This document shows, one piece after another, positions 13,497 through 25,309 of a stretch of DNA of 64,000 bases. The number at the start of each line of letters is the position of its first letter. The first letter of the stretch is position 1. Origin of the DNA: a virus; IMG/VR virus record IMGVR_UViG_3300033145_001156, positions 1 to 64,000 of that record; one strand, 5' to 3'. Position numbers and translations under genes: made by a program. Below the pieces are notes generated by a model that did not search any database, had not been told where the DNA came from, and worked only from the letters and a program-made list of their open reading frames with translations.

Positions 13497-13742
13497 ATGG
13501 TTGGTGGGACGGGGCAACCCATCAATAATCACAAGGAAGACACACACAATGATAAGTTACATAACGACTAATGAAAACGGTTCTCACAGGCCAGTCCTTT
13601 CGCAGAAGGGGCTGCCCAGCCCTAAACATTGTGTGTGTCGGGGGCTGGCCGGTGAGAATCGTTTTTGCATTTGTGGGGACAGGTATGCGCCTGTCCCCTT
13701 CGTGCGTTCTAGGACTTTGCGCAAAGTTTAGGAGGGACCATT

Positions 13743-20036: not shown

Positions 20037-20410
20037 GAAGGCGGCAGGGATTGTGTCCTGCTGGAAGTCTGGCAGTGGGGATATTACTGGGATTGGTGAT
20101 GGGATTGTTATCAGTTATCGGGAGGGATGAACATGAATAAGATGACGTGGGCACACGCGATAGAGCTTGGGATACTGAGCGATGAAGCCAGCGCATACTT
20201 TGAGGCGCTAGAGGCCGAGGCGCGGGCGAAAGAATCCTTAACCTATGAGTACAGGCGCAGCTTTCCCAGCCCATATCCACCATACGCTGTTCAGTTACAG
20301 GATGGCGTAGCCATCGGTGCGACGGCCAATCTCTATGATGGCGCTGAGAATGAAGACCCCCGAACGTGGCGCTACTATCCCGCCGAGGCCGGGGTATGTG
20401 CTATCGAGTA

Positions 20411-20462
20411 GCTCGAAACGCCCCACGGGGCGTCCACCGGTGAGGCCGGTGCTGATGAGAGC
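20411..20462 (+). ncRNA. Hammerhead ribozyme, type II
   Basis: GCTC-GAAA-[CGCCCC ac GGGGCG]-TC^-[CACCGG tgagg CCGGTG]-CTGATGA-GAGC; complete core and three stems; intergenic. Confidence 0.92.
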
Positions 20463-22278
20463 AGACGGGAGGAGGAGGATGGTAACGAGGGAGCAGAACA
20501 GGCTGAACATCCTTGTGGATTTATACTTGGATGATCGGAGTATCCTGTCAGACAGGCAGAAGAACGCTGCCTGGGAGGAGATCAAGCGGCGCGATGCGCT
20601 GGGTGAGTTTTGGTCGGTCATGTTGCAGCGATGGGTGGGAGGAGATGATGCAACTACTACGGTGGAGGATACGCAGCGCGGATCCCGGCTGGCCAGAAGT
20701 GGAAGTGAGCGCGCCATCTGCTCAGGAAGCAGCAGAACAGGGCTTTGATTGGTATGAGCGCGTGGTTGTGCGCGAAGTCATGATGGATTCGCTCGGGCGC
20801 AAGAGAGGATTGGGAAAAGAAACGGAATGGCATAAGGAGGATAATCATGGCGTGGTCAGTGACGAGGCGGGCGACGGACGAGGATTACGAATTACTGGAG
20901 AAGCGGGCAGCGGCCTTCATCGGGCGACACCAGATCACGTGGCATGAAGGGGATTCGGCAGTCGGGGCAGTAGAGCTCGAGATTGAGTGGCTTCGGTTAC
21001 CCGATAGCAATGAATTCCAGCAGATGGAGGGCAAACGCCTGGAGCGTCTCTGGAAACGAATCTGCAACAGGGCGATAGGAGACGACGGGATCTGTTTCGG
21101 GAGTGTCGGGCATAGCGTGGATTAACATGTACAGCGCACGAGAGGAGCGCTATATAAGAGTTGCCCTAACGCCATGAAAAAACCAGCGGGGTGCGTAGAA
21201 AGCTGGGACGACTGGGCTTCGAGAATTCAGCGGTATCAGCGTATTTCATATGGCTGTGTCTACACGCACCGGAAAGTTGATCCTTCCCGCCAGCAGGGAT
21301 GCGGAAGTTGTCTTCAGTGACGGCCTAAATGTGGGTAGTGGGTAATGTAGAGTCCCGCGACTTCCTTCACTTGAACTAGACAAGTGCAGCATCATCCCTG
21401 CTGGCGAGAGTGATCAATAAATCAGAGGAGGAAAAAGTGATCAAGTATCATAGCCATAATGGGTTTTACAATGACGGGAATTCGTGTTACGTAACTGAGG
21501 ATCGGACACTCGATATTGAAGCTGGGACCCTGACTATTAAGTCGGTCGAGAGCTTGGGTGGGCAGCTTGCAGGTAACCACCAGTTTGCTCACAAGGAGAA
21601 TGTCACTGAGGAAATCCGGGAGGCTGTTCCGTTTTCGGTTGAGCAAGAAGATGCTGTTTGGAAGGCGCTGGAGCCGCTGGTGGAGACGGCGAGGAAGTAT
21701 CCGCATTTGGAGACGTTCCGGTTCTTCTCCGACAAGCACCGGTGGTTCGTGAAGGGTCGAATCGACAAGGCGGTCAGGCTGGCGGGGGATAGCGACTACC
21801 ACGGGGTGTATTGCTTGAAGGACGTGTTCGCGCTCCCGAAGCATGGCGTGGTATTGACGGCTTATTATGAGGACACCTATAAGCATTCGTATTGGAAGTT
21901 CAGGGTGGAATCGCTAGGAGGAGAAGGTGAAGACGCCATACATCGGGTTCAGCAATGAGACATTGGACAAGATGCCCACGGTCAAGGCGGGGACATTATC
22001 GAATGTCAGAAGTGCGGCGGTGAACATAGCGCGAAGGGCGTTGTACAAGAAGGCTGACTGGGAAAAGAAGGGTGGTTACAAGGCGTTTCATCGCAGTTTC
22101 GCAAATGCAAGCACTTTCACAACAGAATGACGTTTTCGACAGGATGCAGTTACACATCCTGAGCCTGGGGTACTACGTGGACCAAAAGGTACTGATCCTA
22201 GTACTCTTGTAGCGTAGAAACGCTACGCTTAGTGTATCCTGGGCTGAACCGCGCGCTTTGCGCGCACTACTTGGGTCG

Positions 22279-22387
22279 GTTGCAGTCTTCGAGAAGTGAA
22301 GTAGGAAACTGTAACACGAGGTGACATATGAGCAAGAAGAAATTGCGAGAGGTGGTTGCAGTCTTCGAGAAGTGAAGTAGGAATCTG
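22279..22387 (+). CRISPR. CRISPR-like mini-array: 37-nt repeat, 39-nt spacer, 3'-degenerate second repeat
   Basis: GTTGCAGTCTTCGAGAAGTGAAGTAGGAAACTGTAAC at 22279-315; first 29 nt identical at 22355-383. Confidence 0.65.
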
Positions 22388-22649
22388 CTGAACCCATCGC
22401 GACGCCAGGAAAACAAGCGGCCATGGTCGGCGAATACGTGCATGGCTACGGCGACGATTCGGCAGCAGCGGGGGCTAGTCTCCCGCTGTCCGCCGAACAT
22501 GTTCGGTGTGGTAGCGCTCACGGATCCCAGGGGTGCCTACTACCAGTTGATAGCGTGGTGGTTCTAGACAGCTGCATAGCGACTTGGGCATCGGATGGGG
22601 GATCTGACATCATGTTCGGCGGGCAGAGTGGGATTAGCAATAGAAACCC

Positions 22650-22678
22650 TTGACAATTCTGTTCTTTTGTGATATAAT
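22650..22678 (+). promoter_or_regulatory. Consensus sigma70 promoter (AACCCTTGACAA family)
   Basis: TTGACA-17-TATAAT with extended TG. Confidence 0.92.
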
Positions 22679-23957: not shown

Positions 23958-25073
23958 ATGATCAGAGCAAGAGCATATAAGACGAAGCTGAAATTGAATA
24001 ATTGTGAGAAGACGTGGTGCAGGCGGTGTGCTGGTGCATCACGTTTTTGTTATAATTGGGGCCTGGCCCAAATGAAAGAAGCTTATGAGCAAGGAAGAGA
24101 GACGAGCGTGGGGGCTGAGAAGAAGCGCCTCAATGCCACCAAGGATGAAATCGCTCCGTGGTTGCGGGATGTACCTTATGCTGTGTTGCAGTCTGCATTT
24201 GATAACCTGTTCAAGGCATACTTGAATTTCTTTCGGAGGGTGAAGAAGAGGAAAGGCCCGGCAGGATTCCCGAAGTTCAAGTCGAGGCGTAATTCGCGGC
24301 AATCATTTACTCTACGAGGCAGTATTCAGCTCACGGAGACTGGTATCAAGTTGCCCCGTATCGGTTGGTTGCGGTTGGCAGAACATGGTTACATGCCTAC
24401 AACAAAGCGGGCGCGAATCTTGTCGGTGAACGTCTCAACCCGAGACCACGGGCTAACCTGGTATGCCAGTATCCAGGTAGAGGAAAGTGTACCTGAACCT
24501 ACCCCGGCGACTGGTGAACCACTGGGGATTGACCTGGGGATACATGCATTGGCGGTGCTGAGTGACGGTACGGTGTATGAGAACATCAAGCCATTGAGGA
24601 CGGCGCAACGAAAGGTGAAGCGGCTGTCGAAGGAATTAGCGCGTCGCACGAAGGGCGGCAAGAACTGGCTGAAAACCAAGGCCAAGTTGAACAAGGCTCA
24701 TTTGCATGCGCGGAATGTTCGGTTATCTTACCTGCACCAGATCAGCGCCGAGACAATTGCAAAGTATCCCAGAGTGATCGTGATGGAAGACCTCAATGTA
24801 GCAGGGATGGTAAAGAATCACTGTCTGGCGAGAGCGATAGCAGATTTAGGGATGTATGAGGTTAGGAGACAGATGAGCTATAAGGCTGCGTGGAATGGTT
24901 CTGAGTTCAAGTTGGCTTCCAGATGGTATCCTTCCTCGAAGGCATGTTCTGGGTGTGGGTGCATCAAGGACGGGTTGACGCTGGCCGACCGGACGTTCAC
25001 TTGCTCGGACTGTGGACTAGCGATCGATCGAGACCTAAACGCGGCCTTGAACCTGGCGGCGTTGGCACGTTAA
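23958..25073 (+). CDS. tnpB: TnpB RNA-guided endonuclease (IS200/IS605/IS607 OrfB family), solo, RuvC triad intact
   Basis: RAYKTKL, SRFCYNWGL, GFPKFK; RuvC-I GIDLG, RuvC-II VMEDL, Zn finger CSGCG/CSDCG, RuvC-III DRDLNAALNL; no tnpA nearby. Confidence 0.95.
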   Translation: MIRARAYKTKLKLNNCEKTWCRRCAGASRFCYNWGLAQMKEAYEQGRETSVGAEKKRLNATKDEIAPWLRDVPYAVLQSAFDNLFKAYLNFFRRVKKRKGPAGFPKFKSRRNSRQSFTLRGSIQLTETGIKLPRIGWLRLAEHGYMPTTKRARILSVNVSTRDHGLTWYASIQVEESVPEPTPATGEPLGIDLGIHALAVLSDGTVYENIKPLRTAQRKVKRLSKELARRTKGGKNWLKTKAKLNKAHLHARNVRLSYLHQISAETIAKYPRVIVMEDLNVAGMVKNHCLARAIADLGMYEVRRQMSYKAAWNGSEFKLASRWYPSSKACSGCGCIKDGLTLADRTFTCSDCGLAIDRDLNAALNLAALAR

Positions 25074-25183
25074 CAACCGTTGGAGGCCCCCAGAACCGGG
25101 GGTGACTGCCTGGGGAGTTGGAGTGCTGTAATGCTCTACTATGAACCAGGAAAGGCGCAGAGGAAGTCGCTCATAAGTCGCCT
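25074..25183 (+). ncRNA. Putative TnpB omegaRNA (reRNA) scaffold; boundaries uncertain
   Basis: Directly downstream of tnpB: CCCCC/GGGGG hairpin, GCCTGGGGAG...TGAACCAGGAA stem, AGGCG/CGCCT hairpin. Confidence 0.65.
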
Positions 25184-25218
25184 GGGGAATCCATGCAAGT
25201 TTATGCAGTTTGCATAGG

Positions 25219-25309
25219 GTTTCCCCCACGCACGTGTGGGGAGTTTGAACACCATCTGCTACTACGCGGTGAAGCGGAACGTTTCCCCCACGCACGTGTG
25301 GGGAGTTTG
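25219..25309 (+). CRISPR. CRISPR mini-array: two identical 29-nt type I-E-like repeats and one 33-nt spacer
   Basis: GTTTCCCCCACGCACGTGTGGGGAGTTTG at 25219-247 and 25281-309; CCCCAC/GTGGGG hairpin; spacer AACACCATCTGCTACTACGCGGTGAAGCGGAAC. Confidence 0.85.

Follow-up and report, generated by a model that had tools for sequence, protein, structure and literature searches.

The complete genome of this uncultured phage is 105,622 bp long with direct terminal repeats, and "the window" below refers to its first 64 kb, the whole stretch of DNA that was analyzed here. The window is about 55% G+C with a strong positive GC skew, and nearly all of its long open reading frames (ORFs) lie on the plus strand. 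A CRISPR-like repeat-spacer-repeat unit, called the mini-array here, occupies part of a non-coding gap that opens after the last early-operon ORF and closes at the next consensus promoter (table 1). The RNA of this gap folds with a z score of −3.19, and two hairpins precede the mini-array; the second of these (GCGCGCTTTGCGCGC) is a variant of the gene-junction palindrome that is dispersed through the window. The mini-array has no promoter of its own. Searches of Pfam, PHROGs and PADLOC gave no match for the neighbouring ORFs, none of the genes beside the unit was recognised as an acr gene, and a 601-nt query covering the gap found no blastn match among phages. A 90-codon frame that opens inside the second repeat and runs through the structured gap has no homologue among 5.8 billion proteins and is probably not a gene.

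Table 1. Features in and around the mini-array (window coordinates), and bacterial arrays that share its tail variant
Feature	Position	Strand	Remarks
Non-coding gap holding the mini-array	22131..22649	+	Between last early-operon ORF (ends 22130) and next consensus promoter
G+C-rich palindromic hairpin	22250..22266	+	GCGCGCTTTGCGCGC; 12 nt upstream of repeat 1; variant of phage gene-junction palindrome
Repeat 1	22279..22315	+	37 nt; starts GTTGCAGT, ends AGGAAACTGTAAC (8-nt tail read as ACTGTAAC)
Spacer	22316..22354	+	39 nt; RBS GAGGTG, then ATG and 8 codons
15-codon frame	22328..22375	+	MSKKKLREVVAVFEK; from ATG in spacer to TGA (22373-22375) inside repeat 2; coding status putative
Repeat 2	22355..22393	+	First 30 nt equal to repeat 1; 3' end decayed, AATCTGCTGAAC replaces AAACTGTAAC
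90-codon open frame	22381-22653	+	Begins inside repeat 2, runs through structured gap
Consensus promoter TTGACA-17 nt-TATAAT	22650..22678	+	Starts next operon; conserved in relative L003
Arrays with the tail variant in bacterial genome G035	Locus L139, contigs C4, C25, C63, C86, C194

Several other elements of the same neighbourhood deserve mention. A promoter module of about 50 nt (AACCCTTGACAA, about 17 nt, TATAAT, with an extended −10 element) occurs five times in the window, at 2801, 18417, 22645, 31412 and 44606, and these modules probably mark the starts of the early and middle operons of the phage. A type II hammerhead ribozyme lies at 20410-20470 on the plus strand between two small ORFs of the early operon (Rfam RF02276, 39.1 bits against a gathering score of 37). 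Directly before the promoter at 22650 is an inverted repeat of 28 nt (22474-22501 and 22611-22638, 82% complementary and 109 nt apart), and a similar inverted pair (21277-21301 and 21393-21417), whose 3' arm is conserved in the related contig L003 discussed below, precedes the gene of a 182-amino acid protein. Both pairs look like further copies of a long-range-helix RNA cassette found at 18.6-20.1 kb.

The window contains a direct repeat of 34 nt (22278-22311 and 22354-22387) in which 33 positions match, the first 30 nt of the repeat are exact, and the two copies are 76 nt apart from start to start. When the repeat 29-mer was sought with up to three mismatches it occurred twice in the 64-kb window and never in 100 shuffles. 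No third copy is present in the complete 105,622-bp genome, even with eight substitutions allowed. The parsing given in a previous sequence-only reading of this DNA (37-nt repeat, 39-nt spacer, then a second copy with a decayed 3' end) is accurate, and the unit has the form generally required of a CRISPR array, namely direct repeats of 23-47 nt around a unique spacer of similar length (here 37 nt, 39 nt and a period of 76 nt). Beyond base 30, repeat 2 differs from repeat 1 by substitutions and by a 2-nt difference in length. The two ends of repeat 1 are complementary to each other and form an 8-bp stem (hairpin −9.5 kcal/mol, z −2.4); repeat 2 by itself folds weakly and keeps no stable hairpin. 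That reading also stated that there are no cas genes, and this too holds: neither Cas6 nor Cas1 has a match anywhere in the phage genome, and ten neighbouring ORFs gave no PADLOC match. In this the unit is like virus-borne mini-arrays, which occur in viruses with no cas genes and presumably rely on those of the host.

We compared the repeat with those of bacterial arrays by scanning genome contigs for three copies of its first 8 bases, GTTGCAGT, spaced 56-74 nt apart. The largest group among the true arrays listed is a family with 37-nt repeats (L020, an Anaerolineales array of 65 repeats, and L029, L051, L069/L091, L074, L095 and L124). The 3' tails of this family, which played no part in the selection, read A[CT]TGAAA[CG] with GGNN before them, and phage copy 1 ends in ACTGTAAC in the same register; since the ends of the phage unit are complementary to each other, the likeness of its two ends to the family does not amount to two independent observations. 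The periods of the family arrays are 72-77 nt (76 in the phage), and the 9-mer AGGAAACTG is common to the phage repeat and L020 in the same register. Some of these arrays adjoin recognisable cas genes: those of a type I-D system beside L074 (Cas1 and a cyano-type Cas3'), of type I-B beside L095 (Cas3, Cas5b, Cas7/Csh2 and Cas8b) and of type III-D beside L051 (Csx10, Csx7, Csx19 and a weak Cas10 match). About 20 of 401 sampled genomes of the phylum of L020 carry arrays of the 37-nt family; nothing stated here depends on the unpublished genomes G838 and G852, which came up in the genome sampling. One genome, G035, which like L020 belongs to the Chloroflexota, has several 37-nt arrays with the tail [AC]CTGTAAG in place of the usual ACTGAAAG, and this TGTAA variant is common to the G035 arrays and the phage unit.

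Two models built from the bacterial repeats were run against the phage. A position weight matrix made from positions 9-37 of seven family repeats, whose arrays had been found through their first 8 bases alone, places copy 1 at rank 308 of 211,188 phage-genome positions (P about 0.0015); copy 2 does not score. A covariance model (R1) built from 11 bacterial repeats was run over the window with filters off; its members were chosen for sharing the phage ends, so it is biased toward these, and with that bias its best match in the window is 22279-22315, full-length and ungapped and weak (14.4 bits, E 0.16). The second-best match is the same site on the opposite strand, and on repeat 2 the model covers the first 18 nt only (22355-22372, 9.3 bits). 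The middle 16 nt of the phage repeat, positions 9-24, are unlike those of any array found. The likeness to CRISPR repeats thus goes no further than the family (5' end, length, tail and period), and the mini-array is probably CRISPR-derived; that the phage makes use of it is less probable than that derivation.

A close relative of the repeat was sought more widely. The exact 29-mer is absent from viral contigs, and neither 185,579 species genomes nor 241 million metagenome records contain the exact 22-mer. With blastn at E ≤ 10 the 37-mer matched nothing in plasmids and gave two chance partial matches in phages. Comparison of the gap with Rfam, including its CRISPR-DR models, returned no family at E ≤ 10, about 920 sampled genomes from two phyla held no closer repeat, and the pattern of the family ends occurred once in viral contigs, by chance and in a coding region (L172). 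No cas-bearing host array with an identical or nearly identical repeat was found in the collections searched, and the host may be an organism yet to be sequenced. The description of the repeat as CRISPR-like stands for its length, ends and period, but its middle is unmatched and no near-identical repeat turned up. Matching it to CRISPR repeat collections, which had been expected to point to the host, gave no Rfam CRISPR-DR family and indicated no host.

The spacer was said to read as a ribosome binding site followed by an ATG and SKKKLREV, and the letters bear this out: GAGGTG is followed after 5 nt by the ATG at 22328, from which the 15-codon frame runs into repeat 2. It was also said to have no match in the window, and indeed it occurs just once in the complete genome of 105,622 bp. 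The exact spacer 25-mer has no match in viral contigs, and a codon-degenerate search of these for MSKKKLREV gave a single match, internal to an unrelated protein of a low-G+C phage, which was rejected as chance. Against 1.1 Mb of fetched loci the spacer gave only chance 10-12-mers, and the spacers of the fetched bacterial arrays have no match to the phage. No protospacer in a virus or mobile element was thus found in viral contigs or the phage's own genome, and of the proposal that the unit targets the start of a gene, the gene-start-like nature of the spacer stands, whereas viral contigs, the phage genome and the fetched loci yielded no target. Since neither a near-identical repeat nor a spacer target was found, the exploitation of a host CRISPR type and the targeting of a gene start are things that we infer. 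The opposite suggestion, that the duplication is a remnant of a coding sequence, gained no positive evidence, as neither terminus of the peptide has a paralogue in the phage genome and the downstream frame has no homologue. We estimate that only about 2% of random 39-nt pieces of phage DNA would contain a full ribosome binding site and ATG in the gene orientation, a hint that the "spacer" could have been part of the phage all along. If repeat 1 were taken out, the ATG would lie 25 nt after the junction-type hairpin, a layout much like that of ordinary genes of this phage (13-16 nt at 13710 and 30340). Three origins of the spacer are possibilities: native phage sequence, a real tiny ORF with a chance likeness to CRISPR, or a Cracr-like guide segment that addresses a gene start or promoter region.

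We somewhat favour the plus strand as the functional one. Read in this direction the repeat matches the family sequence better, the copy that has decayed comes last, in the trailer position, and the orientation is that of the uniform plus-strand transcription of the phage; no promoter-like site lies just downstream on the minus strand. On the other hand, repeats of the family characteristically carry a 4-bp hairpin immediately 5' of the 8-nt tail, and this does not form on the phage plus strand, where two of the four model pairs are non-standard. In the phage unit such a hairpin is found on the minus strand only, where CUUC/GAAG (positions 15-18 and 26-29) immediately precedes ACUGCAAC. A crRNA from the minus strand would be complementary to a message with the ribosome binding site and ATG, as an RNA-targeting type III system requires.

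Relatives of the phage were sought in metagenomes by alignment of the upstream 182-amino acid protein, which has no Pfam, PHROG, PADLOC or PDB relative. Two short contigs, L003 and L004, were obtained in this way. L003, whose upstream protein is 65% identical, is the only relative with DNA covering the slot of the mini-array; there a tRNA-Trp gene (anticodon CCA, L003 592-665) replaces the whole gap, and the unit is absent. The shared promoter follows the slot and is itself followed by an ArdC-N antirestriction gene (L003 737-1099). L004 ends too early to cover the slot, and the closest relative by the upstream protein (P0001, 93% identical) is on a 5.1-kb contig. A search of viral contigs with the flanking proteins found no relatives, and the promoter pattern and the junction palindrome gave unrelated single matches only. 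Because L003 has a tRNA-Trp gene in this place and ArdC-N after the promoter, the slot holds variable cargo in an early region of anti-defence type. The upstream protein was considered as a dedicated partner of the mini-array and rejected, as it is present without the unit in L003.

It is established that viruses can carry mini-arrays without cas genes as well as solitary repeats (PMC6858448, PMC10651486, PMC11656645). Those of the Sulfolobales viruses SPV1 and SPV2 (Medvedeva et al. 2019, PMC6858448; reviewed in PMC11656645) resemble the phage unit in having one or two spacers, host-type repeats and no cas genes; their use of host Cas proteins is presumed, and their spacers plausibly come from another virus. 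They differ in that their repeats are identical or nearly so to those of known host arrays and their spacers match related viruses, neither of which was found here. Racrs (Camara-Wilpert et al. 2023, PMC10651486) are likewise phage-encoded repeat mimics in anti-defence regions without a cas gene, but they are single repeats that need no spacer, whereas here two repeat copies enclose a spacer of the length usual for CRISPR. In the Cracr RNAs of viruses and the CreA/CreR RNAs of hosts (bioRxiv 10.1101/2024.10.29.618823) degenerate repeats flank a single spacer segment resembling a gene start, much as they do here. Cracrs are defined by their likeness to host CreA/CreR and by at least 9 PAM-proximal matches to a cas or creT promoter (bioRxiv 10.1101/2024.10.29.618823), and the systems for which they are described do not include I-D and III-D. 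A further comparison is with the 37-nt repeats of the I-B, I-D and III-D systems above (for example L020, L074, L095, L051 and G035), which have in common with the phage unit their length, the GTTGCAG(T) 5' end, the register of the A[CT]TG[AT]AA[CG] tail, GGA[AT] just before it and the 72-77 nt period; positions 9-24 are unrelated, so that the match to real arrays is confined to ends, length and period. On this comparison of sequences the unit looks like one of a real Cas6-type repeat family carried without cas genes, and it probably belongs to a kind of element already known from viruses.

Our preferred reading, held tentatively and at a little less than an even chance, is that the unit is a CRISPR-derived mini-array without cas genes, carried as cargo at the end of the early operon, which supplies a guide to be loaded by host Cas proteins against the start of a competitor's gene. 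In this view a complete 37-nt repeat and a 39-nt spacer are followed by a second repeat whose 3' end is truncated or decayed, the repeat being a putative member of the broad 37-nt Cas6-processed family GTTGCAG...A[CT]TG[AT]AA[CG] of I-B, I-D and III-D systems. Transcription would occur as part of the long early plus-strand transcript, and host Cas6 would cleave the repeats 8 nt before their 3' ends. This would leave a single crRNA-like RNA in which an 8-nt tag precedes the 39-nt spacer and the 5' portion of repeat 2. An effector complex of the host might take up this RNA, and the most likely use of this complex would be against a gene start in a competing phage or mobile element, as with the Sulfolobales virus mini-arrays.

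The same features can be read in other ways. It is unlikely that the unit acts as an anti-CRISPR or regulatory RNA, that is, as a Racr-like repeat mimic that soaks up Cas6 or effector subunits or as a Cracr-like silencer of a host gene; in the latter form it would steer the host complex, through partial complementarity, to the promoter or start of a cas gene or of a toxin gene that guards CRISPR. Its place in the early operon, the ArdC-N gene in this region of a relative and the fact that Racrs are solitary repeat units in phages (PMC10651486) all fit such a role, as does the divergence of a "pseudo-repeat" from its family, which is also seen in CreA and Cracr RNAs (bioRxiv 10.1101/2024.10.29.618823). 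Moreover, a gene start is the type of site bound by Cracr-like RNAs, and partial complementarity would explain the absence of a full protospacer match. Cracrs, however, have been described for types V-A, I-F, I-E, I-C and I-B and not for I-D or III-D, and no acr gene was recognised beside the unit. No more probable is that the unit is a fossil without function, either part of a host array (repeat, spacer and about the first 30 nt of the following repeat) gained by illegitimate recombination or the product of ectopic spacer insertion at a lone repeat, and is not used at all. The identity of the repeats stops abruptly after base 30 of the second, with the first 30 unchanged, which points to a breakpoint rather than gradual decay; the slot takes unrelated cargo in relatives, and the unit has no promoter of its own in a phage that has no cas gene. 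Perfect conservation over 30 nt in a compact genome nevertheless argues for a recent origin or for selection, and the lost 3' end of the last repeat is one that a single crRNA does not need.

It is also improbable, to about the same degree, that the unit is not CRISPR at all and that a local partial duplication or a pair of hairpins flanks a tiny translated ORF, with ends that resemble a CRISPR repeat by chance; such a unit could be a leader-peptide-like or processing element of a structured early transcript. A self-complementary hairpin with a CRISPR-like 5' end automatically has a CRISPR-like 3' end, and the early operon is rich in structured RNA (the hammerhead ribozyme and the long-range helices). 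The ribosome binding site is strong and stands with its ATG on the coding strand, at the above distance from the junction-type hairpin once repeat 1 is taken away; the covariance model gives an E of only 0.16, and no CRISPR relative has the same repeat middle. Such an origin does not readily account for the exact 37-nt length, the AGGAAACTG shared with L020, the 76-nt period and the sharply bordered layout of repeat, unique segment and repeat, nor does it fit well with a second copy that lacks a stable hairpin or with a genome in which neither the peptide nor the repeat has a paralogue. Finally, the spacer could be the native 5' end of a gene that formerly occupied the slot, a reading to which we give little credence. 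The guide, made with host Cas proteins, would then be directed against relatives that still have the intact gene at this locus, and after co-infection and repair the allele bracketed by repeats could copy itself in, so that the unit would behave as a selfish, homing-like element that needs no protein. In a minus-strand variant of this reading, which we rate no higher, the abundant plus-strand early transcript would act as an "anti-crRNA", an antisense partner to a host crRNA and its tag, and would blunt type III immunity.

That the unit is an example of a known phenomenon is plausible but unproven. If the preferred reading of a guide used by host Cas proteins is correct, the phage carries a second CRISPR-type unit and is an added case of a bacterial virus that borrows a repeat of Cas6-type systems (I-B, I-D or III-D), and the organisms whose arrays carry the 37-nt repeat become candidates for its host. 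With its gene-start-like spacer and ambiguous strand the unit is a compact test case that could help to distinguish the roles proposed for viral mini-arrays, namely whether they guide attacks on rivals, act as decoys, silence transcription or home as selfish units.

The other CRISPR-type unit lies beside a TnpB gene downstream. The TnpB protein (371 amino acids; 23958-25309 on the plus strand including the repeats) has OrfB_IS605 and Cas12f1-like TNB domains and its own promoter, and is not accompanied by TnpA. The gene is 1.6 kb downstream of the 37-nt unit and its repeats 2.9 kb downstream. We rejected the TnpB element as a partner of the 37-nt unit, as the two are separated by three genes and a consensus promoter and their repeats are unrelated. 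The two mini-arrays had been called unrelated, and the 29-nt TnpB-linked repeats do differ in sequence from the 37-nt repeat. The further idea that they exploit two different host CRISPR types is weakened, because the 29-nt array follows TnpB, and it may be this nuclease, not a Cas complex of the host, that uses it. The downstream repeats are two identical 29-nt palindromes (25219-25309, beginning 145 nt after TnpB) that are 62 nt apart from start to start with a 33-nt spacer between them, and they look like a separate mini-array of type I-E.
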